From: Setoptus koraiensis
Taxonomy: Eukaryota > Animalia > Arthropoda
NCBI GenBank assembly: GCA_048013815.1
Contig: CM106586.1
Coordinates: 744,001-808,000 of the forward strand
Direction: 5' to 3'
Length of the DNA: 64,000 nucleotides
The position numbers were made by a program, and so were the translations under genes. Shown piece by piece: positions 3,494-39,962 of the stretch. How positions within the stretch are numbered: position 1 is the stretch's first letter; every line of letters begins with the position of its first letter. The notes below the pieces were generated by a model, which had not been told where the DNA came from, ran no database searches, and was given only the letters and a program-made list of their open reading frames with translations.

Positions 3494-4030
3494 ACAAGTA
3501 ATACTGATCAAATCAGTATTTCGAGCGCTTAATTTTTCATGTAGACGATTACCGTTGATAGATTAGGAGGAGTTAATGACAACCTATTAGCGCTCGCAAT
3601 CGATGAATTGTTGCATACTTGGTAGCCAAGAGTACAAGAGATCTCAGCTATACCACATAGTGGTACAGCTGAGATGCTCGTGTGCGGTATGCTATTCAAA
3701 TTGATCGTTTGGTCGTTTCATACCATCTAAAGAGTATCACAAACTAGATCCAGGTTTCTCAAATTTTCACCATAGTTAGATGTACATGTCAGCTGCCTGC
3801 ATGCAAAAATTGGTGCACTTCTATCGGTTATTTTTGCCACAATTAATGATTTCAATACAATAAAATTATTGGGTTGTTCTAGCGATTAGGTCCCCAACCG
3901 GATCTTGATGAGACTTCCGGTTTAGGTCTATCTTAACCTGATTAAAACGGAACAAGTAATACTGATCAAATCAGTATTTCGAGTATTGGATAGACGAGTA
4001 TCGTTGGAATATTGATGCGAGTGTAATAGA
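3494..4030 (-). mobile_element. Helentron-like HINE 3' ends (two: 3494 and 3952)
   Basis: ACAAGTAATACTGATCAAATCAGTATTTCGAG = rc of 3' hairpin + ACTTGT; the 3952 copy lacks the subTIR. Confidence 0.75.
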
Positions 4031-4089
4031 AGTGAAGTAGGCAGCATGCGGTTTATAATTCTATATATGTATAGTTTATTTTATAGTTT

Positions 4090-4818
4090 GGGTGTTGTAG
4101 CGATTAGGTCCCCACTCGGAATTCGTTTAAACTTCACACACAGGCTCTATAGGGGCCCCATATCACGATTTGAGTGGTCCGGAAGTGCGGAAACTTCCGG
4201 TTCCGGAAATTCAAAAATATCGAGATAGAGCTCTGAAAACTCAAAAGTAGATAACACCTAGCGGAGAACGATGAAATCAAAATTGATCTCCCATCATTTC
4301 CGGTGCACGAGATATCGGGGATTATTTAAACAAGAAGTGTGGCCGTATGCGTGCAGCGGACCCATTCTGTGCATAGACTGAGCAACATCATGTATTGGCT
4401 TTTGTTTTAGTCATTACATCTCAGTATTCTTCTTGTTCTGGCCTATACACGTCATTACGACGATCCCTACACCCGTGCCAGTATACGAGGCCGCAGGCCG
4501 TGTTCTCAGACACACCGCATGTTTAGTCCCGAGCGCAGCGAAGCAATAATTTAGTCACTTCCGGTCTTCCAACCGTTGTAATATCCCTATATCTGGCGAA
4601 CCGGAAGTCGCACGAAGCTAAAAATCATGCCATCGTGTTGAGTGTAGTCTAAAATCTCTCTCTGGTGAATTTTAGAGCTCTAGCTTTAACTTTATGTAAA
4701 ACCGGAACCGGAAGTTTCCACACTTCCGGACTACTTTTTCCGTTCTATTGGGGTCAAGGTCGACCCACACCGGAAATTTCATCGAGACCTGAGAGGGGAC
4801 CTAATCGCTACAACAACC
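4090..4818. mobile_element. GG-ended MITE, complete
   Basis: TIRs GG(G/T)TGTTGTAGCGATTAGGTCCCC; perfect 8-bp TSD TATAGTTT (4082-4089, 4819-4826). Confidence 0.9.
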
Positions 4819-4844
4819 TATAGTTTGATAACATATTTTTGACT

Positions 4845-4925
4845 GGGCATCGCACTCTATGGTGCGCCCGTATTTATACGATTTTGGTCCAATGACGTCA
4901 CACAGGAGTGCGTGACGTCATAGTC
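4845..4925 (-). promoter_or_regulatory. Putative Pol II promoter: two CRE palindromes, CCAAT, TATA, CAGT initiator
   Basis: TGACGTCA twice (~4893, ~4913), CCAAT ~4889, minus-strand TATAAATA ~4870-4878, CCAGTC ~25 nt downstream. Confidence 0.45.
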
Positions 4926-4973
4926 TCTACTGCGCAGGTGCGGCAGTTTCACACACTCCCACTCACCTGTGCA

Positions 4974-5554
4974 CTAGTTGGGAATTTGTTCTTGATTCAA
5001 TCTGATGACCAATCTCTCGAAATAAAGTCGAATCAATCTATCTGATGCAATACTTTGTGCCGTCACCCATGTTGGCGGAAATTGACCCTCTGTTAACCAG
5101 TTTACTTGATAGAAAATTAAGCCATTAGTTGACACACAATGTCCTAGAATCGATTGTATCTCCCACTCGCCGTAGGTTATGGGATAATACTCATTGGGTC
5201 TTATTTCCTCAATTTGATTCACTTGCTCTTCAGCGAAGTTATTAATATAGTCCTCTGGCGGTGCGCCAGCTACGCCATTTTCTTCATGGCCCCACTCAAG
5301 CAATTCATTAATCATCTCTGAATTATCAGAATTACTGTCTTCATGGCTACTTAGTGATGATATCTTTTACTCAAATCTATAGGTTTGTCCTGATTGTTCA
5401 ATTGCACTTTAATAATCTCCTGTGTGGTTGCGTCGTTGATTAATTTTATTCGCCTGTCGCGTATGATAATAAGGGCTTCAATTTTTAAGCAAATTTCACA
5501 AGTGGTTCCTTCGGAGTCCAGGATATGACTACTGACGTGACATCCTGTGATCAT
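4974..5554 (-). CDS. Small PxDLS-motif + C-terminal chromodomain protein (two ORFs joined by a 1-nt frameshift)
   Basis: 5351-5554 ends KPIDLSKR; one extra A in the A4 run gives KISSLSSHEDSNSDNSE into 4974-5315 with chromodomain-like WEIQSILGH..FYQVNW..PPTWVTAQSI..LIRLYF. Confidence 0.65.
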
Positions 5555-5980
5555 CTTTAACTTTTTGATGCGGATTGTGGGTCAATTGAAGGTCAATTAA
5601 AGATGCCTAATTTAGACATCTTCTTGGACATAATTCGTTATATGAGAGATTTTCGCTCTCTCCAGTTGTTTTAGTGCGCCATCTGTTGATCATTTCTGAA
5701 CTAATTTTAAGACTCGGAATCTTGCTGTCTACACCCTTGATAGCGCCATCTAGTGGTGTTTTTTAGAACTTACTTTATCACAGCGGATTCGTGCGCTCCC
5801 TTCAGGTGTGCTGCTGTATGCTTGAGTGTAGTGCGGTATAGTGCGGTATAGTGCGGTATAGTGCTGTATAATTGTTGGAATATGAACTGTACCCTGTCAA
5901 CACTGAATGTGAATATCAGGACGATCGGTGACTTTTGTGAATTCCAATACTAGTGCAGTATAGTGCTAATGTGTTGCTTG

Positions 5981-6797
5981 GGTTGTTGTAGCGATTAGGT
6001 CCCCACCCAGATCCTGATGAAACTTCCGGTATAGGTTCATCTTGACCCAAATAAGACGGGAAAATTACTCCGGAAGCCAGGAAACTTCACGTTCTGGTTT
6101 GACATAAAGTTGAAGCTAGAGATCTGAAACTCACCAGACCGACGTTTCAGAGAACGCTGAACAGAATGGCATACTTTTCAGCTCTGTGAGACTTCCGGTT
6201 CTCAAGATATAGGCTTATCTATAGGTTTGGAAGACCGGAAGTTGACGAATTTCAGCTTCGCTGCACTCGGGTATGAACCTGCGATAGGTCTGAGAATTCG
6301 GCCTCGTGATTTGGAGGCCGTCACATCTCCGTCGTCGCTCCCGCGACGACTGCGTGCGACGGGAACCCTTCGGGTAGGGTTGATGAGCGCTTCGGGTATC
6401 GGGCTGCGCCCTCTACCCTCCGCTCACATGACTGCAATCCAGACACAGATGTTTGGAATGGCAGAAGAATACGATAATGCATGGTGCTGCGCATACGTGG
6501 CACAGAATGAGTCCGCTGAACGCAACCGCACAGACCCGGCCACACCCTCGGTTCAGCTTTAACCTCTTTATCCACCGAACCGGAAGTCATAGAAAATTAA
6601 TTTTGATGCCATTATGCTCCGCTAGGTGTCTCCAATACAATTCTGAAATTTGGGAGCTCTATCTCGATATTTTAGTATCTCCGGAACCGGAAGTTTCCTG
6701 GCATCCGGAATACAAAATTCATAGTATGGGGCCCCTACAGGGCTCTTGTGCGAAGTTTCATCGAAATCCGAGTGGGGACCAAATCGCTACAACACCC
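5981..6797. mobile_element. GG-ended MITE, complete, inserted in the 3' end of copia env A
   Basis: TIR GTAGCGATT(A/T)GGTCCCCAC; TSD GTTGCTTG/GTTGTTTG (1 mismatch). Confidence 0.88.
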
Positions 6798-7967
6798 GTT
6801 GTTTGCACTATTTCAATCTCAGCAGGCGTTTCATATTGAAAATTATCAAAGTCAACTTCGATTGTCACCTGTCTTCTCAAACCCCCACTGTGTCTGACAT
6901 ATTCATAATAACATTTTACGCTGAGCGAAACGCAACTACCGACTGTCCAAATTATAATGATCCAAACTGCTCTGAAACTGTAGTATGGACCACTGAAATC
7001 TCCCTCCATACGAGCTGTAAACACAAAGTTTATGTTTTGTGTCACAATATCAACTGTAATGTCCAAAATTGTGGTGCCTTTTGTTTCTATTTTAGTTAAA
7101 TCAGGATAGGTAAGCAGTTCAGCTAGCTCAGGTATTGCCATTTTCCCCCATTTACACTCCATTACTATTATACGTAAGATTACTTCTGTAGCTAAAGTTT
7201 TTAGATCTATTAGATGAAATGCATGTAAGATCGGATCTGCATCATCGAGTACAGACTTGTGTATAAACTGTTCATCTGCTATGACGTTGCTTATGGAGAT
7301 TAGATCGGACTTTATCCCTTCCTTTATTCCTTCTTTCATATAGTTAGCGGCGTCATCATCGATACTAGCACCAAGAGTATCTTTCAATTGTTCGAAACGA
7401 TTGCTATTATCCAATTGGAATTCTGTTTTGAACAGATTAGTAATTGAGATACCAGTTATGTTTGGTATTGGGTTGAAGGTTTCTCTCTTCGCCTTTACTG
7501 TTGGTAGGCATAATTTAAGCTTTCTCATTACTGGATGTAGCCTGTTTTCGAAGAATCCATCACATAAGCATCGTGTTTGAGCTTTTATAGACGTATCATT
7601 ACATGATTTTAAGTTTGCCTTTGAAAATTGATGACAGGGATTATCTATGTCGAGAAGAAGGTGAAAGTTTATCCTTTTACAGTCAATTAATCCTACAAGG
7701 CACACAACGAGTGTCATAGCGATCATAGCATAGCTGCTATTCAGGCGATCTCCCACCGGCTCTGAAACTTTCATCATATTCTTGAATTTATGGTGCTTGT
7801 CACGTGACAATGGTTTTGTTAAGGCATCCGCGATTTGATCCTCTGATTTGATGTAAGAGGTTTGTATTTCTTTTCGAAACTGCAGGTCACGAACAAACAT
7901 GTACGTAATGTCTATGTGTTTTGTCTTGCTGCGTATTTGTGGATTCAGGGCGATCTCTATCGCACCT
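6798..7967 (-). CDS. Copia RNase H C-terminus fused in frame to envelope-like glycoprotein (env A, Met at 7726; last codons and stop at 5966-5972 beyond the MITE)
   Basis: (TKHIDITY)MFVRD..IKSEDQIADALTKPL = copia RH end; then hydrophobic MIAMTLVVCLVGLIDC, NPC, CDGFFE, KAKR, TM AVWIIIIWTVGSCVSLSV. Confidence 0.8.
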
Positions 7968-10900
7968 TACCAATACAATGCTAATAGTAATCTGTGCAAG
8001 TGACATTGATGTGCACTTGCTTGTTTTCGCAGCATCACAAATTTTCGGACACCCATGTTCATGTGAATATTGTAATTTCTGAACATGTTCTCACCGTAAG
8101 ACTTTCGTGAAAATTTGCACAGAGCACCAATACAATGCTAATAGTAATCTGTGCAAGCGACATTGATGTGCACTTGCTTGTTTTCGCAACATTCGAAATA
8201 TCCGGATGTCCCAGTCCATGTGAATATTGTGATCATCATTATCAAATTATTTTCCTCGTTAGAATCTGTCCATACTATTACACTATCTCCAATTATTAAA
8301 TATCCCAGTTATCTACAAATCATATCCATGTGTTTATAATAACGATTGTTTGCATCCATTCTCCTGCTACGCTCAATGCCACCCTCAGATGTTATATTCA
8401 TCTAATGTTTAGGTTAACACGCAACCTTCTTTGTGTGATAATCATGCATATTCAGTTGCAACTTCTGTCACTCAGTTTAACCGTTACTGTGCTACTCACG
8501 CCCAGCACTACTTAGCGTATCATAAATACTAGAATTATTTACTAGTTATACTGAGTAGTTTCTGCTGTGCTGTAATCTTCTAGTTACAACGCTCCTAGCT
8601 TACCGTGCGCCAAGTCCGAATTGTACGCAGCTTGGCTTCCTCTGTGCTAGATTCATCTAGTTAGCATCGCAGCATTGAGCGTGCTACTCCCGTCTAGTTT
8701 TATCTATAATAGCATTAACAGTGCTGAGAAGCAGTAGTTGTTCTGAGTAGCTTCTACTGTTCTACAATCTGCTAGTTCCATCACCTCTAGCTTCCAGTGC
8801 ACTAGATCAGAATTGAAGACAGCTAGCCTTCTGCTGTGCTAAATTCATCTAGCGAGCATCTCAGCATTGAGCGTGCTAATCGCGTCTAGTTTGTTTTCGC
8901 GCGCATAGCATCCTGTGTGCTAAATCTAACTAATCAACATTGTAAGCTCTAAGTGTTCTAAAGGACCACTTGCATTCAGGGTCTCCAGAATCAAACTGAT
9001 CTGACATATATAAATTCAGTATTTTTGTGATCGGAAGAGCCTTCTGATCACGAATATAACTATTGCATCATCCTTTAGTCCGACGTTTGGAAACTAGGCG
9101 GCGTTGCTGTTTTTCGCTTTGGGGGCCTCTGGAGCCCTAGTATTTTGTCATAGAGACACGTTCTTGGTATCGTTGGATGAATCTCCAGAAGATGCATCTA
9201 AAAATGGTATAATTTTCTCCTAGACTCGAATCCGAGTCCATCGAATGTATGCCTTCTACTGTACAAATTGTACGTGTCATTGCTGAGAAATTCTGAATCC
9301 TCAGCAATGACACTATGTCAATTTTTTCGTGCCTTTGACAGTGCTATTTGTACGTGTCATTGCTGAGAACTGCTGAATCCTCAGCTATGACGCTGTTCAG
9401 TCAAGTTATGTGCCTTTGACTGTGCGAAAATAGATGAATTCAGCACAGCAGAAGGCTAGCTGTCTACAATTCTGATTTAGTGCACGGGAAGCTAGATGCG
9501 TTGTAGCTAAGAGATTACAGCACAGCAGAAACTGCTCAACCATCCAAGGTATCTCAACGTTAACAATGTTATCCCTATGGAGATTGGACTTTGCCAATTT
9601 CACGTCAGTCTCTGTGTTAAAGTATCTAAACGTTAACAATGTTATCTCTATGTGAATTTGACTTTGACGATTTTGAAGAATTTTTAGCCCTTAATTTTAA
9701 TTAAGTTGCTATTGGGGTGGTGATAATGACGACGTTCATTCACGTGACAGAACAAATCAGTGCTATTTTTTTCTAGGAAAAATTAGTAGAGCAAAGGCGT
9801 CGGGAAGCATCTCGCAGGTTTCATCATTCTAAATCTATCTAGTTTGTTAGTACAGAGAAAGCTAGAAGGCGGAGTCATTTGGAAACAATTATAAAGTGAA
9901 GGCTGAGACGCTAACTAGTAAAAATTAGCATGCGACAATACTAGCTGTTTACGAATTGAATCTAGCACAAGGGAAGCTAGGAGTGCAAAAACTAGATGGA
10001 TAAAGTACAATGAAAGTCTTAAATGTTGACTTTCAAAATCTAGCACACGTAGAGCTAGGAGTCGGAGTTTTAAGAAATAAATTATACAGTAGAGGCTGAG
10101 ACACTAACTAGTAAAAATGAGTATGCGATGATACAAGCTGTTTACAAATTAGATTTAGCACTATGGAAGCTAGAAGTGCTTAAACTAGATGGATAAAGTG
10201 CAATGAGACGCTTAAATGTTGTCTTTTGAAATCTAGCACGGAGGAAGCTAGGAGGCGGAGCTATTAGAGAACTATTATACAGTAGAAGCTGAGACGCTTA
10301 CTAGTAGAAATGAGCATGCGATAATGATAGCTATTTACAAATTTCACTCATCAACACAAAGGAATAGCTCACTGCACACGTTCGCGCGTGTAGTATGTAG
10401 CTAACAAATCGTCTGCGCGCTCGCGCTCACGAGATGTGTATTGAGCTTGATCTGCTAACTGTGAACAGTTTGAAAGCTCACTTGGAGCTTTTGCTTTGAA
10501 CAATAAACATCTATTTGCCTATCTATCTATCTATCTGCTTGAATCTACTATACGCGCTATAACACATAGTGCGCCATTGATAGCTTGTTGTGTTGGCATT
10601 TGACATATATATCCAACTATGGTGAAAATTTGAGAAACCTGGATCTAGTCTGTAATACTCTATAACTGGTCTGAAACGACCAAACGACCAATTTAAATAG
10701 CACACCGCACACGAAGTGCGCGCTATAGCACACAGTGCACCATGAAATACTTGTTGTATCTATCTAAATTATTTATTGTAGCAAAACTGAGCGCTAGAAA
10801 TGAACCAATTTCCGCATGCAGGCAGCTAACATACTCATGCACCAATCTAAACTATTATATTTCATCAGCACTGTCGAAGGCACTCAATTTAGTCATAATA

Positions 10901-12103: not shown

Positions 12104-12606
12104 NNNNNNNNNNNNNNNNNNNNNNNNNNNNNNNNNNNNNNNNNNNNNNNNNNNNNNNNNNNNNNNNNNNNNNNNNNNNNNNNNNNNNNNNNNNNNNNNN
12201 NNNNNNNNNNNNNNNNNNNNNNNNNNNNNNNNNNNNNNNNNNNNNNNNNNNNNNNNNNNNNNNNNNNNNNNNNNNNNNNNNNNNNNNNNNNNNNNNNNNN
12301 NNNNNNNNNNNNNNNNNNNNNNNNNNNNNNNNNNNNNNNNNNNNNNNNNNNNNNNNNNNNNNNNNNNNNNNNNNNNNNNNNNNNNNNNNNNNNNNNNNNN
12401 NNNNNNNNNNNNNNNNNNNNNNNNNNNNNNNNNNNNNNNNNNNNNNNNNNNNNNNNNNNNNNNNNNNNNNNNNNNNNNNNNNNNNNNNNNNNNNNNNNNN
12501 NNNNNNNNNNNNNNNNNNNNNNNNNNNNNNNNNNNNNNNNNNNNNNNNNNNNNNNNNNNNNNNNNNNNNNNNNNNNNNNNNNNNNNNNNNNNNNNNNNNN
12601 NNNGCA

Positions 12607-13788: not shown

Positions 13789-15353
13789 TACTGATTGAAT
13801 CAGTATTTCGAGCGCTTAATTTTTTGTGTGGACAAGTATCGTTGAAGGATTCAAAGGAGTTTATGCCAACCTGTTAACGCTCGCAATCGAAGAATTGATG
13901 TAAGTGTGGAAGCTGAGAATACAAGAGACTTCAGCTATACCACTATGTAATGCCTTTCGGCGCAGACTAGACTAATTTAGCGCATAATTACAAGGATATG
14001 TCCACTCCTCAGCAATCATATAGTATGACTTAGTTATGTGCCTTTGACAGTATTAATTGTGCATGTAATAGCTGAGAACATGAGCATTCTCAGCTATCAC
14101 ATGCACAAGTGACATTGATGTGCACTTGCTTGTTTTCGCAGCATCACAAATTTTCGGACACCCATGTTCATGTGAATACTGGAATTTCTGAACATGTTCT
14201 CACCGTGAGACTTTCGTGAAAATTTGCACAGAGCACCAATACAATGCTAATAGTAATCTGTGCAAGTGACATTGATGTGCACTTGCCTGTTTTCGCAGCA
14301 TTGGAAATATCCGGATGTCTCAGTCCATATGAATACTGGAATTTCTGAACATGTTCTCACCACTGAATTTCCGCGAGAATTTGTACAGATGTATGATACA
14401 ATACTTGTGTCAATCTGTGCAAGTTTGATCAAAAGTTTATTCCCCGTTTTCGCAGCATCACAAATCTGCGGACACCCATGTTCATGTGAATATCGTGATT
14501 CCTGAATATGTTCTCACCCCTAGAATTTCGTGTAAATTTGCACAAGGCATCTCATCTGTTTGAAATTGTTCCTGTTTCTCTTTCCATTCTTCGCTATGTC
14601 TTCATTACGCATCTTCATCAATATCAAATTATTTTCCTCGTTGGGATCTGTCCATACTATTCTACTTTGTCCAATTATTAAATATCCTAGTTATCTACAA
14701 ATCATCTCTCTGTGTAAATAATAACGATTGTTTGCATGCATTCTTCTGCTATGCTCGATTCATCTGGTAAACATCTTACCCTCAGATATAATATTCATCT
14801 AATGTTTAGATCACACGCAACCTTCTTTGTGTGGTAATCATTCATGTTCAGTTGCAACTTCTGTCACCCAGTTTAACAGTAACTGTGCTACTGACGCCCA
14901 GCACTAGATAGCATCGCAGCATTGAGCGTGCTACTCTCGTCTAGTTTGATCTACACTAGCATTAACAGTGCTGAGAAGCAGTAGTTATTCTGAATAGCTT
15001 CTACTGTTCTACAATTTTCTAGTTCTGACGCCTCCAGCTTCCAGTGCACTAGATCCGGATTGTATACAGCTAGCCTTCTGCTGTGCTAAATTCATCTAGT
15101 GAGCATCTCAGCATTGAGCGTGCTAATCGCGTCTAGTTAGTTTTCGCGCGCATAGCATTCTGTGTGCTAAATTTAACTAATCAACATTGTAAGCTTTGAG
15201 TGTTCTAAATTTATCTAGTTTATTTCTCATAGTACAGCTTACACCGTGCTATTTTTTTCTAGTTAAAAAAAGCACTGATTTGTTCTACCCACGTGAATAA
15301 ACGTATCCATCCGACCCACATCAATAGCTACTTAATTAAAATTAAGCGCTAAA
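13781..15353 (-). mobile_element. Helentron-like HINE, complete
   Basis: 3' hairpin+ACTTGT (rc) at 13781; 5' TTAGCGCTTAATTTT (rc) at 15339-15353; inserted in an A-run, no TSD. Confidence 0.85.
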
Positions 15354-25949: not shown

Positions 25950-26489
25950 CCTTAAAATACGCTAGGTAACAAGAGAAGGATAGTTGAAGTAATATTTGCG
26001 ATGATACCAGAAAGAATGTGATTTTATATCTAACATAAATTATCTGAATGTATGACAGAATAAGACAAGACGATGACTCATAGAAAGTCATTATGTCACA
26101 CCACCGTAGAGCAAGCTCATCTTGACAAGGTCGTCTGCATACTAATTTGTATTGAAAAATACATTATTGATGGTCGCACTGCGTTGTAGCACAGTTGATA
26201 GATAATCTATGTGCAAATGTCCTTGAATCTTTAAACTTATCAGCTCTATACGTTCATACAAATCACTCTAGACTCTCTTAAACAGTTGAGATTGCCTTTC
26301 TGACGCTCTCTGGAGCATCTCTAGTCATATCAAATAGGGTATAGAACTTTGAAATTTTCATCGGAAAATTGCAAAAAGTTGGGATAAAACGGGGCTAGGT
26401 ATAGACCCATTTTGCTCAGCTCCTCGAGCTGAGTCGATCTAGGCTAACGAGGACTCAATCTGAGTCTATCAGCTGGATAGGTTTCCTCG

Positions 26490-28077
26490 TGAGTTATCAC
26501 CCAGAGCCATCAAGACAAGATTCAGGACCACCAACTGTGTCGAAATTCTTTGGGCTCATGGCTTATATAGACCCAACGTCGTTCAAAGAGGCGATGGCAG
26601 GCCCTGACAGTGCAGAATGGCAGACGGCGGTGGACAAAGAAATAATGGCTCACCAAGAGAACAAAACTTGGACGGTAATAAAAACGCCAGTCGGTGCAAA
26701 CCTTATAACCTCTCGCTGGGTGTTCAAAAGAAAAACATTAGCTGATGGGTCATTGGATCGCTATAAAGCGCGCCTGGTGGCCCGCGGTTACGATCAAAAT
26801 TATGGTCAAGAATACAACGAAACCTTTGCGCCGGTCGCGCGACACGAAACCATCAGACTTATGTTTGCACTGGCAACGAATCATTCGTTGAAATATCTAC
26901 AGTTCGATGTGGAAACCGCCTTCCTCCATGGTGAACTGGAGGAGACGGTGTTCATGGCCCCTCCAGCTGGAATGGACTGCCCAGGAGGGCACGCTCTCAA
27001 ACTCAATAAAAGTCTGTATGGGCTAAAACAGGCCCCGAGAGTCTGGAAAGAGAGTCTTGACAGCATCCTCGCCAAAATTGGCTTAAGAGCAACTACGTCC
27101 GATCCTTGCCTCTATCTCGGCAAAATATCGAATGAGGACGTCATGCTCATCATTTATGTCGATGATGGGCTGGCGTTCTCCACCAGTGGGCATGCGCTCG
27201 ATCAGCTACTAGGACAACTGTCACAATCACTCAAAATGAGGAAAGTGTGTGATAATACCTTCGTAGGATATGAATTCAAAGTTGGTGACTCATGCACCGT
27301 CCTCCAGGAGACCTACATCCGTCGAATGTTGAGGGCATACCAGATGGAGGAATGCTTGGAAGCGTCATCACCGATGGTCGACACGGTGGACCTTCAGAGT
27401 AAATCTGATAAGGACGAACCCAGCGAAGCTCCGTATCGCCAACTGATTGGATCTCTCCTATACTGCGCTTGCTGTACACGACCAGACATCTTATATTCGG
27501 TGTGCTTCCTCGCCAAGTATACGAACCCAATGGCAAAACATTGGACCGCCGCAAAGAGGATTCTGAGGTACCTCAAGGGCACAAAAGAACTAGGCCTGAA
27601 GTACAACAAGGTCGGGCCCTTTGAAGTTGAATTTTCATCCGACGCCGATTGGGCGAACAATCCGTGAGAAAATCCGTGAGTGGAATCATGGCCACCGCCA
27701 GTGGTGGACCAGTTATGTTCACCAGCAAACAGCAAAACTTGATTGCCTTGTCTACCACGGAGGCAGAATGTATAGCTGCTTCGTCGGCCGCGAGAGAGAT
27801 TTTATGGGTCAGAAGATTTCTCGAGGAAATAAAGGAAATCGTAAAAACAAGGCAAACAATTAAACTTTTGATTGACAATCAGCCAACAATCAAACTTATT
27901 GCTAACCCAGAGTTTAGAACGAGAACAAAACATCTGGACATCCGACTGGCGCACCTCCAAGACAATGTTAAGAACAAAATGTTCAACATTGAACATGTGG
28001 CCAGTGACAATCAAAAAGCAGACTTACTTACAAAGTCGCTGACGCCAAGAAAGCACGCCTCAAAAGGATCGGCATGA
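26490..28077 (+). pseudogene. Ty1/copia reverse transcriptase and RNase H (continuation of 16628-19292)
   Basis: YKARLVARG, FDVETAFLHG, LYGLKQAP, YVDD, SDADWA; RKSVSG, RTKHLDIR, ADLLTK. Confidence 0.95.
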
Positions 28078-28306: not shown

Positions 28307-28623
28307 TCAACGCGCTGAGGTCTCGAACAGGTCCTGAGGATCTCTTCGGAGACGTTGTAAGCCGATAGTTTCCTCTCTTGATTTCTGGAGTTTACGTAAT
28401 TTTATGCAAACCCAGATGAGGATAACGCCGGTTATTGATAGCAGTAGTGAGGCGGTGATGGTTCCCAGTGTGCTGGATCCGTACCTGGCTAGATACGGCA
28501 TGTTGATTGTTTTCGTCGCTCCTGGATCTGCTTCTTCGGTTAATTTGGACAGTTCGGCGATTCTGTCTAACATGAGCGTCGCCGAATCGTGATTGGGTTC
28601 AGTGGACAGCATAGAGGTCCAAT
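28307..28623 (-). CDS. Gypsy env C-terminus: TM anchor and cytoplasmic tail
   Basis: TLGTITASLLLSITGVILIWVCI then KLRKLQK; rejoins 29475 in frame (HQIVKNWTSML) after HINE removal. Confidence 0.85.
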
Positions 28624-29474
28624 TTTTAGCGCTTAATTTTAATTAAGTAGCTATTGGGATGGTTCTGGGCTCTACGTTTATTCACGTGGGTAGAACAAAT
28701 CAGTGCTTTTTTCAACTAGGAAAAAATAGCACGGTGAAAGCTGTACTGTGAGAAATAAACTAGATAAATTTAGAACACTCAAAGCTTACAATGTTGATTA
28801 GTTAAATTTAGCACATACAATGCTATGCGCGTTCACTTACTAGACGCGATTAGCACGCTCAAAGCTGAGATGCTAACTAGATGAATTTAGCACAGCAGAA
28901 GGCTAGCTGTATACAATTCGGATTTAGTGCACTGGAAGCTAGAGGTGTTGGAACTAGAAGATTGTATAACAGTAGAAACTACTCAGAATGTCTACTGCTT
29001 CTCAGCACTGTTGATTCTAATGTAGATAAAGCTAGACGAGAGTAACACGCTCAATGCTGCGATGCTAACTAGATGAATTCACATAGTGCGCCATCGCGTC
29101 CTGGTGTATGTATTGAAATTATTTATTGTGGCGAAACTAACCGATAAAAGTGCACCAATTTTTGCATGCAGGCAACAGACATGTACATCCAACTATGGTG
29201 AAAATTTGAGAAACCTGGATCTAGTTTGTGATACTCTTTAGATGGTATGAAACGACCAAACTACCAATTTGGATAGCATACTGCACACGAGCATCTCAGC
29301 TATACCACTATGTGGTATAGCTGAGATTTCTTGTACTCTTGGCTACCAAGTATGCATCAATTCATCGATTGCGAGCGCTAATGGGTTGTCATAAACTCCT
29401 CCTAATCTATCAACGATAATCGTCTACATGAAAAATTAAGCGCTCGAAATACTGATTTGATCAGTATTACTTGT
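28624..29474 (+). mobile_element. Helentron-like HINE, complete, inserted at TT in gypsy env
   Basis: TTTTAGCGCTTAATTTT ... AAAATTAAGCGCT + hairpin + ACTTGT; empty site CCAATTCTTC restores the frame. Confidence 0.92.
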
Positions 29475-31350
29475 TCTTCACAATTTGGTGTTTGGTCGCT
29501 GCTAACGTTCCGATATTTGACCAAATGTGTGATCTGGTTCGCCATGGTTGGTCTATGGGCAAGCTAAATACGAAAGGAGGGCAACGCGCGCTGACGTTAG
29601 CCAGCTCAATACGTCCTTTCAAACAGTATATGTAGGCGCGTTCTCCATCAACTTTCACGTCCTCTCTCTCCTCTATGTGATTTAGGTTGCGGTGGCATAC
29701 GATATTCTTCCATGATGAATTTCGTTCTGGCAGGAAATCCTTTTCATCACAAGTCAGAGCTAGTTCTTTTCCCACCGGGGTCGATAGGATCGGGCGCGTG
29801 CAATTGGCTGTGCTGTTGTATAGGACAAATTTATGGCCTGTGTACTCTTGCAGACACGGCTTGCCTGTCAAGTTATTATAGACTCTGAAGGCGTCGGACT
29901 GCAGCAGGTAGGAATTCTTGTCTACGTTCCTGGTCGTAAAGCGCAATTTGATAATATGCGGAGCCAGTTTAGTACAAGAATGCGTCGATGAGGCTAACAT
30001 GTTCACGTTAATTAACTCCGATATATTGGTGAATTTTCCCAATTCTGGAGATATAAGGTCATTGTTCCAAGCGTTTATGGCCCGATCGAGTTGTAAGCCT
30101 GCGTCTCGGATGGCATTCTGAACGTACAATGTTGTCCAAACTTGGTATGGCCAGTTGCGTGCCATTTCGTGGATGTCTTGGGTGTTTGTATTCACCTGTC
30201 TGGCTAAGGTTCGGTACAACTCGGTTTGCGTTTTAGTTACCATGTACGCCTTATCAGCGTGTTTGAGAAGCTTATTTAATTCGGCCGTCAGGATGGTTAC
30301 CTGTTTTTGAGTTTCGGCGTCGTTGTTGGGATGGAAATAGCCATGGACGGATTCTACGATGGACGAAACCACGTATTCGAATGCAGCGCCTGCTCCAAAT
30401 TCCAAAATTCCAATCTGTCGTTTTACTCTGGTACTTTCGTGTTCAGTTTGGTCGGTGCACCAATTGTCCAGCCGATAAAGAATTTCCTTCTCGTAAAATT
30501 CTTGGCACATTTTGTATAAATTGTTATTCAGCGCTTGATTTGGCGAAGACACTAACTCTTTGCACGGCGATTTCACAGCGATGGTGAGATCCCACGATTT
30601 TGTCCCTTTGACGATTTGAGTATCGGTTTTACGCCACACAACTGGTGGTTCATGTCTCCATATCATCTCGCCGAACACGACGTTGATGATACACGTTATG
30701 GCGATGCTTTTGGTGATAAGGTTCATCGTTGACCTAGTGGCTGCTGTTTGTGCAGGTTGGTAGTTGCTCGTACTTGGTTGATTGATGCTTGTACTCGGTT
30801 GATTGATGCTTGTACTTGGTTGATCGATGTTCGTGTTTGGAGAGTTATTATTCGACTGAATTGAATGGTCGTCGGTGTCCGTCTCGGAATCGTCGTTTCT
30901 TGGAGTGAAAGCCCTCAAGACTGAGACATGTCGCGAAATTTTCTTGTGGTTTATACAGTGTTCCAGCTCATATATATTATTCGCGCTGACTTTGGTGACA
31001 ATATATGGGCCGTCACTTTTGTTTGCTAGTTTAGCGCCGCGCGCAAGCTTTTTCAAGGCCCAAACTTTGTCGCCTGTGTTAAATGTCAGGTCTCTTCGTG
31101 AGGCGTCGTATCTTTTTTTTGACGCCGCTTGGGCTTGAGCGTTTTGGTTCATGGCGTGCGCCATGTTTTCTTCTAGTGTCAATTTCATCAGCTTAGTGTA
31201 TAGTTGGTGGATTGACATTTTTTCCAGAGTAACATTATCTTGATAAAGGAATGGTTTGCGACCATACATTAATTCGTATGGTGTCATATTGGTTGACGAA
31301 TGTTGAGTAATGTTGATGGCAAATGTGATCATTGGCAGTGCTTCGTCCAA
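29475..31350 (-). CDS. Gypsy integrase C-terminus (GPY/F) fused in frame to env (signal Met at 30726)
   Basis: TPYELMYGR, GDKVW, DGPYIV; linker; MNLITKSIAITCIINVVFG, WRKTD, SPC, CQEFYE, RVKR + QIGILEFGAGAAF. Confidence 0.88.
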
Positions 31351-34103
31351 TTTGCCATACTGTAATCGTCGTTGCTATTTAATACCATTGCCAACTTGTC
31401 GCCAATCGTTTCGTTGGCGCGTTCGACTAACGCGTTGCCTTGGGAGTGAAAGGGCGTCGATCGGATGTGGTGTATCTTGTGCAGCTTACACAGCTCCTTG
31501 ACCACTTCCGCTCCGAATGTCTGCGCGTTGTCGGTTAGTATATTCTCCGGTATCCCGTACCGGCATATGATATTCTCGTTTAAAAATTTAGCGAATTTGA
31601 TAGACGAGATTTCTGAAGTGGCAGCGGTTTCGATGTAACGCGAAAACGCGTCGATAGCCACAAATATGTGGCAATTCCCTCTAACCGAATCGGGCAGTTT
31701 GCCAATACAGTCGATAGCTACGATTTCGAAGATTCTACTGCATTGGAAGGAAGACATGAGGCCCGCCTGATTTTGTCGTGGGATTTTTCTGCGTTGACAC
31801 GTTTCGCAACTGTCGACATAGTTGCGGACGTCGCTTTTAATCGAAGGCCACCAATACTCTTCTTGCAGTTTTGCAAGTGTGGCTTTCCGGCCGCCGTGAC
31901 ACGCTAGGAAGTCGTCGTGTGCACGACGGAGGAATTGTTTTCTTAATTGGGCTGGTATAAATAGCTTATTGTCGTCATTGTAAATCACTCCGCTTATCGT
32001 TTTGACTCCGTCACCCGATGCGGCGCGAGCCAACATCCCCTGCGCCTCGACTGAGGAGTCATAATTCGCTATCCATTCTTCGTTGTTCACGAGGATGATC
32101 ATACATATGAATATGACTGCTCTGTCCGGAACATAGTCGTGCTCATCAACTGGGTTCCGTGACAGGCAGTCAACATCCGCATGTAGATATCCCCTTACAT
32201 ACTCGATTGTTATATTGTATTCGTTGAGCAGTGCGCTCCATCGCGCTAATTGAGGCGATACAGGCCTTTTTTTGCCCAGCACGCATAAGGCACAGTGGTC
32301 CACGAGGACAGTCACTGGCCGACCCAATATGTAGGCACGATATTTGTCTAGTGCCCATATTAAGGCTGCTGCCTCTAATTTGGTAATCGAGTAATTTTTT
32401 TCGCTTTCATTCAGTCGGCGTGATGCGCAAGCCACAATCATCCAACCTCTTTCGTGTTTTTGTTGGAGGATTGCGCCGAATCCTTCGAGGCTTGCATCAG
32501 TTTTTAGGCGTGTTTCCAGCTTAGGGTCGAAGCACGCCACGCACAAGTCTGAGCTGAGAGCGTCTTTGAGTAGATTGAACGCGTCTTCTTGCTCTCTTTG
32601 CCACACAAAGGGAGCGTTTTTTAATGTCAAATTTACGAGCGGTGCAGACATCTCTGCAAATGCTGGTAGAAAGCGTCTGTAATAAGATGCTTTTCCGAGA
32701 AAGCATCGTATTTGTGTTATGTTCTGTGGTCGCGGGAAGGCTTTAATTGCCTTCACTTTTTCAAAGTCGGGCTGGATGCCGTTCTTGGAGATATGATGTC
32801 CGAGAAAAGTAATGGCCGTTGCGCCCAGAATACATTTGGCCGGTTGTAACTTTAAATTCGATGCTCGGATGCGTTTGAACACTGTCTTTAATGACGCGAT
32901 GTGGTCGCTCCACGTTGGTGAAGCGACGCAGACGTCGTCAATAAAGACCATCAATGCTTCGTTTTTTAGGCCACTAAAAATGGCGTCCATTAAGCGTTGG
33001 AAGGAGGCGCCAGAGTTGGATAAACCAAAGGGCATGGCTTTAAATTGCCAATGCCCGTCATGCGTGCGAAATGCGGTTATTTCGCGCGATGATGGGCTCA
33101 TTGGAATCTGCCAGTACCCGGACTTAAAGTCCAATAAAGAGAAATATACTTTATTGGCCATAAAGTCCAGGCAGTCATCAATTCTTGGCAGCGGATATGC
33201 GTTTTTTTTTGTTTTGGCGTTGACTGCCCTGTAATCAACGCAAAATCTTGTGTCGCCATTTCTTTTTTTCACCAGCACGTAGGCGCTGGCCCACGGCGAC
33301 GTTGATTCTTCAATTATATCCTGTTTGATCATCTCAGCTATTTGCTGAGATACGGCTTTTTTTCCACTGGTGCATGGCGACGGAGTGGTTCGGCGATTGG
33401 TACGGCGTCCGGTAGCAATTCTATTTTGTGTTCGCACAAATTGGTGCTGCCAAGTTCGCCTTTGAAGGCAAATATATCAGAAAAATTATTCATTATATTT
33501 GAGATGTCATTCAGTTGTTCTGGCTTTAAATCGTCGCCAACTTGGATAGTTGCGCCTTCTTCGTTTACCGGAAGTATGGCGTTGCAATGTATAGGTTGTA
33601 CGTTGTCATCGTGCTCGTTAAGTGCTTCATATCGAGCGATCGTAGCTCCTTTGGCTATTGTTATCGGTACTTGGGTTGCATTCATTACTAAAATGTCGCA
33701 ACGTGATTTAATCGGTCTGTATATACCGTTTGCGATGTTGAGTCCTGCGTTATTGTTTGAGGGTTTTGTTAGAATCTCGTTTGTGGTATTAACGATGACG
33801 CTAACGAATTTTTGTGACCTTGTAGGAATTTTTACTGTTTGGGCGGATATCACGGGCCCTTTTGGTTTTGATGTCGAACTCTCGGAATCGATCAGGTTGA
33901 TTGAGGTTTGTGTTATTTCCTCATCTTCGTCGATGTAGCGCAAGGTTTCTTTGGTGTCGCATTCAATGCAAATTCGCAATCGGCTGAGCGTTTCTTTGCC
34001 GATTATTACGTCAACTGGTAGGTCCCGTATGACGTGGTATTCGATGTACAAAATTTTGGATGTGTTATTCAGACGGATAGTTGTCTTTTGGATTGTTACG
34101 CCC
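31329..34103 (-). pseudogene. Ty3/gypsy protease - RT - RNase H - integrase (two 1-nt frameshifts in homopolymers; 5' end in gap)
   Basis: DVIIG, RFCVDYR, MPFGL, VFIDD, KTDAS, H..H..CETC, IDCIG/TDNA/LVER. Confidence 0.95.
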
Positions 34104-34603
34104 NNNNNNNNNNNNNNNNNNNNNNNNNNNNNNNNNNNNNNNNNNNNNNNNNNNNNNNNNNNNNNNNNNNNNNNNNNNNNNNNNNNNNNNNNNNNNNNNN
34201 NNNNNNNNNNNNNNNNNNNNNNNNNNNNNNNNNNNNNNNNNNNNNNNNNNNNNNNNNNNNNNNNNNNNNNNNNNNNNNNNNNNNNNNNNNNNNNNNNNNN
34301 NNNNNNNNNNNNNNNNNNNNNNNNNNNNNNNNNNNNNNNNNNNNNNNNNNNNNNNNNNNNNNNNNNNNNNNNNNNNNNNNNNNNNNNNNNNNNNNNNNNN
34401 NNNNNNNNNNNNNNNNNNNNNNNNNNNNNNNNNNNNNNNNNNNNNNNNNNNNNNNNNNNNNNNNNNNNNNNNNNNNNNNNNNNNNNNNNNNNNNNNNNNN
34501 NNNNNNNNNNNNNNNNNNNNNNNNNNNNNNNNNNNNNNNNNNNNNNNNNNNNNNNNNNNNNNNNNNNNNNNNNNNNNNNNNNNNNNNNNNNNNNNNNNNN
34601 NNN

Positions 34604-35622
34604 CTCTGTACGAGCACCTGGAACTAGTATCGGAAATTCGAATTTTCAATTTCGAATTTCCAAGTTCGAAATGTGACCATCGAACTCTGACCACCGAACT
34701 CCGACGGAGCAGATGGAACTATCATCAGAGAATCGAATTTTCAATTTCGAATTTCGAAGTTCGAAATGTGGCCATCGAACTCTGACCACCGAACTCCGAC
34801 GGAGCAGATGGAACTATCATCAGAGAATCGAATTTTCAATTTCGAATTTCGAAGTTCGAAATGTGACCATCGAACTCTGACCATAGAACTAAGAACACTC
34901 AACCACTAACTTCGAATTGTGACCATCGAACTCTGTACGAGCACCTGGAACTAGTATCGGAAATTCGAATTTTCAATTTCGAATTTCCAAGTTCGAAATG
35001 TGACCATCGAACTCTGACCACCGAACTCCGACGGAGCAGATGAAACTATCACTAGAAAATCAAATTTTCAATTTCGAATTTCGAAGTTCGAAATGTGACC
35101 ATCGAACACTGACCACCGAACTCCGACGGAGCAGATGGAACTATCATCAGAGAATCGAATTTTCAATTTTGAATTTCGAAGTTCGAAATGTTACCACCGA
35201 ACTCTGACCATAGAACTAAGAACACTCAACCACTAACTTTGAACGAGCAGCTAAAACTCTTATTAGAAATTCGAATTTTCAATTTTGAAGTTCAAATTGT
35301 GGCCACCGAGCTCCTCACAAATTCGACCTAGTCAAATCTCCATAGGATTGCATACGAAATATTTTCGAGTAAAGCGATAATAGACCAAGTCAAATCTACA
35401 TCGGAATACATGTGTAATATCTAGCAGGATTCTCACAAATTTGACTAAGTCAAACCTCCATAGGATTACATAGTCACGTGAATGAACGTAGAGCCCAGAA
35501 CCATCCCAATAGCTGCTTAATTAAAATTAAGCGCTAAAAGCACTCATTTGTTCTACCCACGTGAATAAACGTAGAGCCCAGAACCATCCTAATAGCTGCT
35601 TAATTAAAATTAAGCGCTAAAA
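34604..35622 (-). mobile_element. HINE 5' part with TCGAA satellite and duplicated 5' end
   Basis: rc TTAGCGCTTAATTTT at ~35525 and ~35608 (83-bp tandem); satellite 34604-35300. Confidence 0.75.
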
Positions 35623-35632
35623 ATTACACGTC

Positions 35633-36062
35633 ATGGGGTTTGTGATGGAAAGTGTAATCGAAAGCAAAGGTCTCGAGAATGTTGTATATCAAGAAGTTCC
35701 AGAAGAAGACTACACAAACATGAAGAAAAAGATGTTACAAGCCCGTGAGCTTATAACTACGGCACTTGACCAACAAGTTATCGACCAGCTCTCAAACTGC
35801 AAGACAGCAAGTAGCATCTGGCCCAGACTAGAAAGTATATATCAACGAAGAAGTGAATGCAATCTCGAATCCCTTATTAATCAATTTTGGCCTATTAAAA
35901 TGGAAGATAACGAATCCATGGCCCAGTATATAGGAAAAGTTGAAACCTTAGCAGGAAAAATAAGAAACGCAGGCGAAGAATTAAGCGACAGATCTGTGAA
36001 AGCAAAGATAAAGGTGGTTTAGCGAAGCCTTATCAAGAATTTAGCAGGGCCTGGGATGCCAC
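35633..36062 (+). pseudogene. Copia gag fragment
   Basis: ASSIWPRLESIY, MAQYIGKVE, (frameshift) LAKPYQEFSRAWD. Confidence 0.8.
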
Positions 36063-36670
36063 TGTTGGTGTTGGAAATTTTTCTGCAGTCCCTCGGTTGA
36101 TAAAGGGTTATTCCTTGTAGAGATTGAAGTTTCCTGCACCCCTCACCTAAGCCTGCATCATTAATCACTTCGCCTTTGTTGAGTGGTCGTATACAGCTAG
36201 AACTTTTGTTATAAACCACATAATCAGGCCCGGTGTACACCACATCACACATTAAACCCTCTCTAATTTCTCTATAATTGAATGTTTCTGCTCTCATAAT
36301 AATCGCTGAGTTGCTCAAAATGGGCATCATAACTCGTAGGTCGATCTCTTCATCTCTTATCTTTACAGCGATCAGATTCGTATGTTTGAGCATGTTAGGA
36401 CTAACTATCTGCGACATATTAAAGAGCTCCAAGAGTTCTAGTGGTATTGGGTTGCCCACTTTCAGGAGGTTGTTCAATACCAGTAGGGATGTTTTGTAAT
36501 CATGCATTTGGATGGCAACTTGTATGAGAGCATCATTGAGTGCTGGCTGATTTGCCAATATATCAGCAAGTAATTGATTATCTCTCTCCAATGCATCGAT
36601 CTTCTTGGACACTTTATCTGCTGATATAATAAATCTTTCTTGGAGAATTGATATTCGTTCTTCCAGTCGT
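36062..36670 (-). pseudogene. Copia env B ectodomain continuation (truncated)
   Basis: RLEERISILQERF..VGNPIPLELLELFN..AETFNY; continues 38435-39016 after HINE removal, with TAA at the junction. Confidence 0.7.
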
Positions 36671-38434
36671 TTTTAGCGCTTAATTTTAATTAAGCTGCTT
36701 TTGGGGTGGTGATTATGACTACGTTTATTCACGTGACTATGTAATCCTATGGAGGTTTGACTTAGTCAAATTTGTGAGAATCCTGCTAGACATTACACAT
36801 GTATTCCGATGTAGATTCGACTTGGTCTATTATCCCTTCACTCGAAAATATTTCGTATGCAATTCTATGGAGATTTGACTAGGTCACATTTGTGCGCAGT
36901 TCGGTGGTGACAAATCGAACTTCAAAATTGAAAATTCGAATTTCTAACTTGTTGTCCCCTCAGTCGATGGACTGAGGCGGGGAGATCGTAGGTCGGGAAG
37001 GTGCTGTTGATTTACCACTCCCCAGTTCTCCCTCAATCTCCCAAATCTTCAGGAAAACTAAAGAAAAAGAAATACTTCAGCTGACGACAAAAAAAGTGTG
37101 ACAAATATTGTGACCGATCTACAGCGTTTAGTGTTGTGACCGATCGATAGTGTGACCGATCTCTAGCCTTCAGTGTTGTGACCGATCGATAGTGTGACCG
37201 ATCGATAGTGTGACATTTCTCCTTAAAAGTTTAAAGATCTACGTTCGTAACCTCCCTACGATCTAATAAGAGTTTTAGCTGCTCGTTCAAAGTTGGTGGT
37301 TGAGTGTTCTTAGTTCTATGGTCAGAGTTCGGTGGTAACATTTCGAACTTCGAAATTCGAAATTGAAAATTCGGATTTCTGATGAGAGTTACAGCTGTTC
37401 GTTCGATGTTCGATGGTCAGTGTTCGGTGGTAACATTTCGAACTTCGAAATTGAAAATTCGAATTTCTGATAAGAGTTACAGCTGTTCGTTCGATGTTCG
37501 ATGGTCAGTGTTCGGTGGTGACAATTCGAACTTCGAAATTGAAAATTCGGATTTCTGATGAGAGTTTCATCTGCTCGGTCGGAGTTCGATGGTCAGTGTT
37601 CGGTGGTCACATTTCGAACTTCGAAATTCGAAGATTGAAAATTCGAATTTCTGATACTAGTTCCAGGTGCTTGTACATAGTTCGATGGTCAGTGTTCGAT
37701 GGTCAGAGTTCCGTGGTCAGAGTTCGATGGTCACAATTCTAACTCCGAAATTCGAAATTCGAAAATTGAAAACTTGAATTCCCAATGATAGTTTCATCTG
37801 CTCGTTCGATGTTCGATGGTCAGAGTTCCGTGGTCAGAGTTCCGTGGTCAGAGTTCGATGGTCACAATTCGAAGTTCGAAGTTCGAAATTCGAAATTGAA
37901 AATTCGAATTTCCGATGACAGTTCCATCTGCTCGTTCGATGTTCGATGGTCACATTTCAAACTTCGGTGGTAACAATTCGAAGTTCGAAGTTCGAAAATT
38001 GAAAATTCGAATTTCTGATGATAGTTTCAGCTGCATTGTCGGAGTTCGATGGTCAGAGTTCCGTGGTCAGAGTTCGATGGTAACAATTCGAAATTCGATG
38101 GTCACATTTCGATCTTCGAAATTCGAAATCGATGCTCTATAACAAAGTATGCGCCATTGACTAATTGGTGTGTCCAACTAACTTACTCATTGTGGCGAAA
38201 CTGACCATTAGAATCTTACTAAATTCCGTACGCAAGCAATCAACATGTTTATCATGCTGCAATAGCAATTTGGAGAACTAGGATGTATTCTGTCATCTTT
38301 CCGGCTACTCTGATCTGACAGGCTTAGATGTGTATCTCCGACATGTTGTCTCATGCTCGCATCCATATTCCAACGATACTCGTCTATCCAAAAAATTAAG
38401 CGCTCGAGATACTGATTGAATCAGTATCACTTGT
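36671..38434 (+). mobile_element. Helentron-like HINE, complete, carrying TCGAA satellite
   Basis: 5' TTTTAGCGCTTAATTTT; 3' AAAATTAAGCGCTCGAGATACTGATTGAATCAGTATCACTTGT. Confidence 0.88.
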
Positions 38435-39016
38435 TACATGTCTACACGTGCATTATTCTCATTGGCTATTTTTTGAGATGTTGAATTCATTGAATACCTG
38501 GCTGCGTATAGTGCCGACATGGCCAAAATAGCAGCAACGCCACCATCTCGAGCAAATCTTGTGCCGCTCGTAGCTAAGGCATGAATTGTCTCAATAATAT
38601 CTCTTTCAAATCTTTTTGAACAAGTGGTCACAAGATTATCATTAACATATGGTATATCTGTAATATTACCAAACAGATATTGGCAGGGATCTAGAAACAC
38701 AAACTTGACATTACGATCTTGTTGGCCATCGATTAGAACAACATCTGTTCTTTTCCATATTATTGGGTCTTCATGATGGAAAATGGCTGCACATAGTTCG
38801 ACAACAAATGCAAATGCGATGAGGACCGAAGCTCTAGTCAAATTCAGTAACTTCATGTTTTGATTGAATTTGGATGGCGGCAGTGCTTTTGTGAGCAGGT
38901 CAGCTTTTTGAAGCTGTGTAGGAATATATTCGAGTTCGAATAAATTGTTCTTATAATGTTGTAGAATTATTTTATATTTTAGATCAATATGTTTGGTGCG
39001 TTGGTCGAATTGATCG
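38435..39016 (-). CDS. Copia RNase H C-terminus fused in frame to env B N-terminus
   Basis: rc frame reads DQRTKHIDLKY..IPTQLQKADLLTKALPPSKFNQNMKLLNLTRASVLIAFAFVVELCAAIFHHEDPIIWKRTD..DPC..CSKRFE..RFAR-DGGVAAILAM with no stop. Confidence 0.85.
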
Positions 39017-39017
39017 T

Positions 39018-39962
39018 TTTTAGCGCTTAATTTTAATTAAGCGCTAATAATGTAGTGATGATGGATCCAAAATGGAGGAGGCAATCCACACACAAGCCTA
39101 CAATTTTAGTCACGCCCCCTCCTTAGCACACAGTAAGCTTCAGCTTGATTGAGACTTAAGTCGCTCCACCTCCTCAGCACACAGTGAGCTTCAGCTTGAT
39201 TGAGACTTAAGTCGCTCCACCTCCTCAGCACACAGTGAGCTTCAGCTTGATTGAGACTTAAGTCGCTCCACCTCCTCAGCACACAGTAAGCTACAGTCTC
39301 TCGATTACTATGTTAAAGTATCTAAACATTACACATGTTAAGTCTATGGAGATTTGAGTCTCTCAATTCCTGTGTTGAAGTATCTAAGCCATTTCCGGGC
39401 ACGAAGGGTAATTGAGTACGTAGCATATTTGAAACTGTTCTCACCAGGATAAATTCTTGAAACTTTCTAGAGACAGCTAGCACTGTCTCACAGAGCACTT
39501 AATTTTAACTAGGTAAATCATGTAAATGTCGTGATATTTGAACATGTTCACACCTATCCGTTTTGATGATACTCTGTGTGTGTGTTGTGCATGATGCTCG
39601 CAACATTCTATGCTAGCATGATCAGCCATCAATAGGTCGTTTTCGAGACTGAAAGAAATTTCGGATGACGGATGTCATGTGAATATCGTGATATCTGAAC
39701 ATGTTCCCACCTATCCGTTTTGATGATACTCAGTCAACTCATAATCAATTTTCTGTTTCTAGTATTGGCGCTATAGGCCATTATTGAGAACATGTGCCTA
39801 TACAGTATGAGTGATTTTCGATACTATTCTCACCAGGATAAATTCTTGGAACTTTTTAGACACAGCTAGCACTTATCACTACTTAATAAACTGTCCAAAC
39901 CTCTAAGATCGTTCACTGAAAAAATTAAGCGCTCTTATACTGGTGTAATCAGTATAACTTGT
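39018..39962 (+). mobile_element. HINE (second subfamily, palindromic 5' end, 51-bp tandem repeats)
   Basis: TTAGCGCTTAATTTTAATTAAGCGCTAA start; 3' subTIR + TTATACTG..CAGTATAA hairpin + CTTGT. Confidence 0.8.

Follow-up and report, generated by a model that had tools for sequence, protein, structure and literature searches.

Within the window, by which we mean the whole 64,000-nucleotide stretch of DNA analysed here, the end of a Ty1/copia RNase H continues in frame into a protein of about 310 residues, hereafter env A. The explanation we favour, and consider moderately probable, is that the locus preserves the dead 3' end of a Ty1/copia element whose RNase H is joined to a likely descendant of an F-type (class I) fusion protein, which has likely been shortened and has likely ceased to be a full fusogen. 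Taken by itself, F-type ancestry of env A appears quite probable. The locus is the 3' fragment of a broken copia whose upstream genes are lost, and this copy itself cannot be infectious, its gag, integrase and RT being gone. The features of the locus and of two comparison elements are listed in Table 1.

Table 1. Features of the env A locus and of the comparison elements, in positions of the window
Feature	Position	Strand	Basis
Unrelated repeated element truncating the copia upstream; units of 157 bp and 192 bp; copies at 14106-15209 and elsewhere	7967..8962 (right end provisional)	.	Repeat comparison
C-terminal 66 residues of Ty1/copia RNase H, cut on the 5' side	7769..7966	-	Protein search and score comparison
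AD.LTK motif region of RNase H	7840-7808	-	
Hydrophobic stretch resembling a signal peptide (residues 81-96), continuous in frame with RNase H	7679..7726	-	Hydropathy; signal role putative
F2-like part: strand, Pro-Cys, Cys-x-x-Phe-x-Glu helix, KAKR at the end	7484..7678	-	Post hoc pattern that env A shares with only the two other envs; alignment non-significant
F1-like N-terminal half: non-hydrophobic peptide, amphipathic helical stretch, Pro-Glu-Leu...strand landmark from 7132	7016..7483	-	Pattern, low-confidence model
Moderately hydrophobic segment, residues 333-350: weak anchor or beta strands of a shortened ectodomain	6917..6970	-	Hydropathy, low-confidence model
Non-coding terminal-inverted-repeat element in the last codons of the env A frame	5981..6797	.	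Terminal repeats and target duplication
Stop codon beyond the insertion	5966..5968	-	A few codons beyond the insertion; frame as implied by the duplicated site
Accessory coding region, two frames: 5581-5351 (76 aa) and 5366-4974 (130 aa)	4974..5581	-	Frames
Polypurine-tract-like run, TG directly after	4956..4967	-	Sequence
Candidate 3' LTR of ~200 bp; two TGACGTCA, TATAAATA (TATA word) at 4878, AATAAA at 4080, CA end	4022..4955	-	Putative
Copia B: env reading in frame from the RNase H end (39024-38839); pieces 39036-38434 and 36672-36019, insertions between	36019..39036	-	Alignment, tblastn
RT piece of copia B, upstream of RNase H	40184-40047	-	tblastn
Gypsy env (comparison): continuous in frame with the C-terminal part of the integrase (31374-29467); anchor and tail at 28642-28307	28307..31374	-	

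The frame extends over 390 codons without a stop (minus strand, 7966-6797), and the remaining five frames contain 14-44 stops each over the same interval. With the local base composition, the probability that the 324 codons after RNase H would lack a stop by chance is 3.7e-11. A longer protein search with the 390-aa frame as the query returned four proteins at E<=0.001 among 4425 candidates; all four carry RVT_2 (PF07727), and their alignments, at 41-49% identity, cover solely the initial 16-18% of the query. Pfam gave no match for the 390-aa frame. The RNase H end scored 105 in local alignment to the window's other copia RNase H and 31 to the window's gypsy Pol, and, judged on this end alone, the RNase H is of the copia type. 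As the last Pol domain it fits the PR-INT-RT-RH order, the upstream part of Pol being absent from this copy. All four copia relatives reach their C-terminus 18-25 residues past the AD.LTK motif, and the window's env-less copia (27631-28077, plus strand) ends about 11 residues past it; the env A frame continues for 339 residues beyond the motif. The preliminary description, which had the copia RNase H end reading without a stop into an extension, is therefore confirmed by the 390 open codons and by the early stops of the relatives.

On the 5' side, tblastn with four copia polyproteins found no RT, integrase or gag of the env A copy upstream, and one of the four polyprotein alignments reaches weakly into the upstream repeat. 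The same description had spoken of a copia element and of an animal copia with a polyprotein-encoded, potentially infectious fusogen. The copia identity of the RNase H stands, but what remains is a fragment bordered by a foreign repeat that starts at about 7967 and matches 14106-15138, and potential infectivity does not apply to a copy that has lost everything upstream of its RNase H end; the general idea is better borne by the second copia, copia B, described below.

The extension begins with a hydrophobic segment at residues 81-96 whose best 19-residue Kyte-Doolittle mean is 2.04, so that on hydropathy only it has a putative N-terminal signal of the kind expected of an F-type ENV. Cysteines occupy positions 89, 96, 111, 122, 133, 135, 153, 271, 345, and 352, the tetrapeptide KAKR lies at residues 158-161 (7495-7484, minus strand), and three N-x-S/T sites are present. 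A single-sequence structure model of low confidence (mean pLDDT 37) placed helices at residues 190-219 and two beta strands at residues 333-350. These hydropathy values and residue positions bear out the signal-like segment, Cys motifs, KAKR and helical stretch that had been noted for the extension. The transmembrane segment that had been added to this list fared less well: residues 333-350 are only moderately hydrophobic, with a peak of 1.81 followed by Lys-Cys, versus 2.43 for the anchor of the gypsy env, and they are the residues modelled as strands. Codon-usage scores clearly favour the main frame at residues 161-320, not at 81-160 or 321-390. A frameshift may lie inside the last 100 codons of the frame, and over these codons the other two frames contain several stops. 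The env A sequence is present in a single copy within the 64-kb window.

A terminal-inverted-repeat insertion interrupts the last codons of the frame. Its 8-bp target duplication (5973-5980 and 6798-6805) is identical at seven of eight bases, and two other family members in the window have duplications matching at 8/8. The proposal that removal of a MITE at its target duplication restores a stop thus held up, and the stop at 5968-5966 gives env A a length of about 311 residues from Met81. The family comprises non-coding elements at 4090-4818, 5981-6797, and 48551-49409, which have 8-bp target duplications and left and right ends that differ slightly; partial relatives are numerous across the window.

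We evaluated the origin of env A by comparison with the window's other envelope proteins and with databases. Local alignment of env A to the other envs gave z values of 0.5, -0.9, and -0.3, the best of 15 global alignment tests reached a z of 1.9, HMM scores fell inside the shuffle range, and hhalign returned a probability of 0.15%. An impression, by eye, of a good alignment between env A and the other envs was rejected as a statistical claim on these null pairwise and profile statistics. At E<=10, Pfam showed no match of env A to Baculo_F, Fusion_gly or Gypsy (the families PF00523, PF12259, and PF07253), and likewise none for the gypsy env. Word-based protein searches covered 825 candidates for env A and 1743 for the gypsy env, and none proved to be a homologue. 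None of the 105 and 236 pattern matches from two metagenome contig scans held up, nor did any of the 28 and 13 matches from scans of viral contigs. One weak viral-contig match, found twice, lay in a tailed-phage contig opposite a phage gene and was set aside as chance, and tblastn against phage gave no match. Sequence searches of the PDB produced nothing better than E 0.09.

The structure models were poor (mean pLDDT 37 for env A alone and 35.6 for the gypsy env with a three-row alignment), and fold searches with them gave no match at E<=0.001 and a best Z of 4.1, blanks that are uninformative on fold. In the search with the poor gypsy env model, post-fusion chains of RSV and Langya F ranked 1, 5, and 16, at a non-significant E of 0.4-0.8, and no F chain was evident among the matches listed for env A.

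The envelope origin of env A would instead be carried by its neighbours in the Atlas and by two motifs found post hoc, all of which are leads only. The nearest Atlas neighbours of env A are three unnamed eukaryote clusters (0.88-0.89; 452-506 aa), in which the commonest taxon, among the few members with a record, is Arthropoda or Rotifera. The next clusters carry Baculo_F (19% of members, 0.87), Fusion_gly (85%, 0.86), and Gypsy env (38%, 0.85), and haemagglutinin and coronavirus spike appear at 0.85 in the same list; scores below 0.9, with a recognition of 1689, belong to the lead-only range. The gypsy env of the window matched, at 0.93-0.95, clusters with Fusion_gly in 26-83% of members, a comparison of low recognition value, and resembles a paramyxovirus-type F in the Atlas.

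Both motifs were composed after viewing env A. In six frames of the window, a relaxed Cys and basic-site pattern (Pro-Cys...Cys-x-x-Phe-x-Glu...basic site) matched only env A, the env of copia B (env B) and the gypsy env, and it occurred in 2 of 100000 shuffles of env A. Looser forms occurred in 57 and 274 of 100000, the loosest (274) having four further matches in the window, and a strict form built from the other two envs missed env A. The Pro-Glu-Leu...strand pattern was likewise confined, within the window, to the same three envs (23 and 486 of 100000 shuffles), and its strict form matched none of the three. The landmark it defines lies 118 residues from the basic site in env A and 124 residues in the gypsy env.

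Comparison with the gypsy env and env B disclosed what env A lacks. Both of these have RxxR at the place where env A has KAKR, which departs from the furin-type RxxR. After KAKR, the mean hydropathy is -0.29 to 0.07 in 21-residue windows, which does not describe a hydrophobic fusion peptide; at the same place, the gypsy env and env B reach 1.35 and 1.19 in 19-residue windows. Because two defining features fail, env A is not classed as a member of the F-type ENV group. Past the landmark, the gypsy env continues for 156 residues to a break and about 55-60 more to its anchor (about 210 in total); in env A the hydrophobic stretch comes after 16 residues and the insertion after 74. Overall, env A falls short of the gypsy env by about 200 residues; the latter measures 416 residues between its signal and its break and has a tail frame of a further 111. 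This agrees with the preliminary description, which had called env A the shorter of the two. It had also called env A complete, a label left unsupported by the missing RxxR and fusion peptide, the absence of about 200 residues, and the doubtful transmembrane segment. As a fusogen, env A is probably not complete.

The second in-frame element, copia B, is in our reading a better supported case than env A for an animal copia with a Pol-fused F-type env. Env B and the gypsy env are clearly homologous, with z values of 17.2 and 15.4 and no equal score in 1000 shuffles each. A signal-like segment follows the RNase H of copia B, and RxxR and the hydrophobic peptide are kept; a membrane anchor of env B was not found by hydropathy. 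The two RNase H ends are identical at 18 of 50 positions, and that of env A matches its four database relatives at 23-26 of 50. The same layout in two distant copia lineages of the window makes a chance join less likely. This second element suggests that the copia family, thought to be free of fusion proteins in animals, likely picked such proteins up.

Several neighbouring features were observed in the course of the analysis. The 3' piece of copia B adjoins an oppositely oriented copia gag (35621-36022). The gypsy element (33476-28307, minus strand) has a purine run and TG immediately past its stop and sits at the 3' end of a plus-strand copia (26405-28077). An open FLYWCH-MULE transposase frame of 514 aa (21426-19882, minus strand) lies between the gag-integrase and RT parts of the plus-strand copia. 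FLYWCH being an animal-type domain, this frame, together with the F-like envs and the taxa of the Atlas clusters, makes an animal host likely. Tc5/pogo-type transposase frames with HTH_Tnp_Tc5 and DDE_1 are present at 25961-24228 (minus strand) and 41064-42940 (plus strand); at their start stand a hydrophobic segment like that of a signal peptide and then an acidic linker, which is odd for a nuclear enzyme. A 165-aa frame at 22760-22263 (minus strand) has a signal-like start, Pro/His/Thr repeats and a polybasic site followed by a hydrophobic stretch; it has no good Pfam match and might be one more secreted or env-like protein that undergoes processing. Scaffold gaps of 500 N occur at 12104-12603 and 34104-34603, the assembly being gapped in this transposon-dense region.

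Beyond the env A stop, the 5366-4974 frame ends in a chromodomain-like stretch (PF00385, E 0.0047, 17.3 bits, under the 25.1-bit cut-off); a chromodomain outside the integrase would be unusual for a copia. Combinations of a purine run, TG and a TATA word number three in the window with both strands counted, by a criterion set after viewing the run at 4956-4967. The candidate 3' LTR is split by the inverted-repeat element at 4090-4818, whose target duplication matches at 8/8, and neither a second LTR nor a PBS was found within the 64-kb window. We read 4967-4022 as the PPT and 3' LTR of the env A element, although they could be those of another element. In the spacer behind the env A frame, positions 5743..5756 (minus strand) hold the sole match in the window to what we take to be the CTCF-type site pattern, and a shorter CTCF-related word lies at 5684-5676 (minus strand). 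The two could represent a possible insulator borne by the element.

The once-active element would have expressed env A either as one Pol-Env polyprotein or from a sub-genomic message starting at Met81. Residues 81-96 could then serve as an internal signal directing what follows into the ER, where signal peptidase would detach the extension from RNase H. Cleavage at KAKR by a host convertase may yield an F2-like and an F1-like chain, joined by the Cys pattern. The product would have been a secreted or weakly anchored F remnant, not a working fusion machine, because the peptide after the cut is non-hydrophobic and the C-terminal ectodomain and stalk lack about 200 residues. The element likely ran on through the chromodomain frame to its PPT and 3' LTR at 4967-4022.

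Against the idea of a shortened remnant, the 324 open codons, the stop, the spacer and the LTR-like signals argue for selection having maintained the short form, as opposed to simple decay. Env A could be imagined as a complete, compact class I fusion protein with a signal, a short F2-like chain, a cut at KAKR and a helical F1-like chain, anchored by residues 333-350 and ending in a Cys/Tyr cytoplasmic tail, with the intact element making enveloped particles. The frame stays open up to its stop, past which a spacer, an accessory frame, a PPT and an LTR plausibly follow; this agrees with the compact form, as do the second hydrophobic peak of 1.81 with Lys-Cys next to it and the rotifer LTR elements with env-like ORF3s of 210-230 aa described in the available part of PMC5408684. 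The compact form is nevertheless unlikely in our estimation: it would have to work with neither RxxR nor a hydrophobic fusion peptide, its anchor would follow just 16 residues past a landmark in the middle of the ectodomain, the nearest Atlas clusters measure 452-574 aa, and the supposed anchor was modelled, at low confidence, as strands. The consensus RxxR-GxxxxxGxxxKxxxGxxDxxD given in the portion of PMC6563192 at hand is also unmatched in a comparison by eye.

Another possibility, which we rate as quite unlikely, is that the extension does not derive from a fusion protein and represents an unrelated accessory protein, secreted or membrane-bound, that was picked up behind RNase H, its env-like marks being generic. 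In its favour, every unbiased alignment test was null, and a signal, Cys, a basic site and a TM are insufficient to define an env, according to the accessible sections of PMC5408684 and PMC5718144; yet two separate motifs with matching spacing are found only in the three frames of the window that occupy an env position, every named neighbour in the Atlas is a viral class I fusion family, and env A holds the position that env B holds in the second copia. An assembly join, a one-off recombination or a nested insertion could have placed a foreign env fragment behind the copia RNase H, and the window is indeed a patchwork of nested elements, with two gaps of 500 N and only one copy of the env A sequence. 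The junction, however, consists of unique sequence more than 4 kb from the nearest gap, and it shares no word of >=7 bases resembling a target duplication with the region past the stop, save one inside a later insertion. A random join would be in frame in one of three cases and must also fall between the RNase H end and the signal, and a second, distant copia has the same layout. A chimeric junction is, on these grounds, the least probable account and one we regard as improbable. The preferred reading remains a shortened, F-derived extension of a copia that is now dead.

A wider interpretation, to which we assign a little less than an even chance, is that animal Ty1/copia elements gained F-type fusion proteins at least twice, as in-frame Pol extensions freed by an internal signal peptide. 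Env B would be kin of the local gypsy env and env A a deeply diverged, compact form; Pseudoviridae would include enveloped animal members spreading from cell to cell, and env would move between gypsy and copia within a host. If true, copia would be a third LTR superfamily with an F-type env beside gypsy and BEL/Pao, which would inform the question of a single env gain versus exchange between superfamilies and would add a polyprotein route to env expression. The env A locus alone is of lower value in this respect, being a single dead fragment with a putative fold.

The preliminary description took an in-frame pol-env arrangement to be known from BEL/Pao elements. According to the ICTV profile, particles of Pseudoviridae are intracellular and non-infectious, and a putative env is named only for plant Sireviruses, as a third ORF (PMC8515867). 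The available text of PMC13524379 says that there are reports of env-like ORFs from Ty1/copia-like elements, with the host unstated, and that env mostly diverges along with pol within gypsy. Among 11 env-bearing moth elements in the accessible part of PMC6563192, none is assigned to copia, and the portions available of PMC8672886 and PMC13269885 contain nothing on a copia env. A description of an animal copia with an F-type env was not found in the literature covered, including the available parts of PMC12440569 and PMC2774666 (subscription papers, Repbase and supplements lay outside the search).

Among the known systems close to env A, Sireviruses are likewise Ty1/copia elements in which pol is followed downstream by a putative envelope coding region; their env is a separate third ORF and restricted to plants (PMC8515867), whereas env A is F-like, in frame with Pol and from a likely animal genome. 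The part of PMC5718144 at hand treats a fusion role of the Sirevirus env as not established. The envs of a survey that used gypsy baits resemble env A in having an envelope-like region downstream of pol with a signal, a Cys pattern and a basic site. All elements of that survey are Ty3/gypsy, in contrast to the copia carrier of env A and its fusion in frame to RNase H, and, set beside their envs, env A has neither RxxR nor a hydrophobic fusion peptide and is smaller by about 200 residues. In bdelloid rotifers, going by the available sections of PMC5408684, the LTR element TelKA has a paramyxovirus-F-like env of about 600 aa, and the ORF3s of Vesta4/6c are short env-like remnants of 210-230 aa. 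These ORF3s lie downstream of pol; env A, by contrast, is of intermediate length and continues in frame from a copia RNase H. BEL/Pao elements, for example Drosophila roo in the accessible text of PMC13524379, offer the likeness of an F-like env in an LTR element other than gypsy, and env is present in few of them according to the part of PMC3118150 at hand. They belong to another superfamily, and their env would follow the integrase, not RNase H as in env A.
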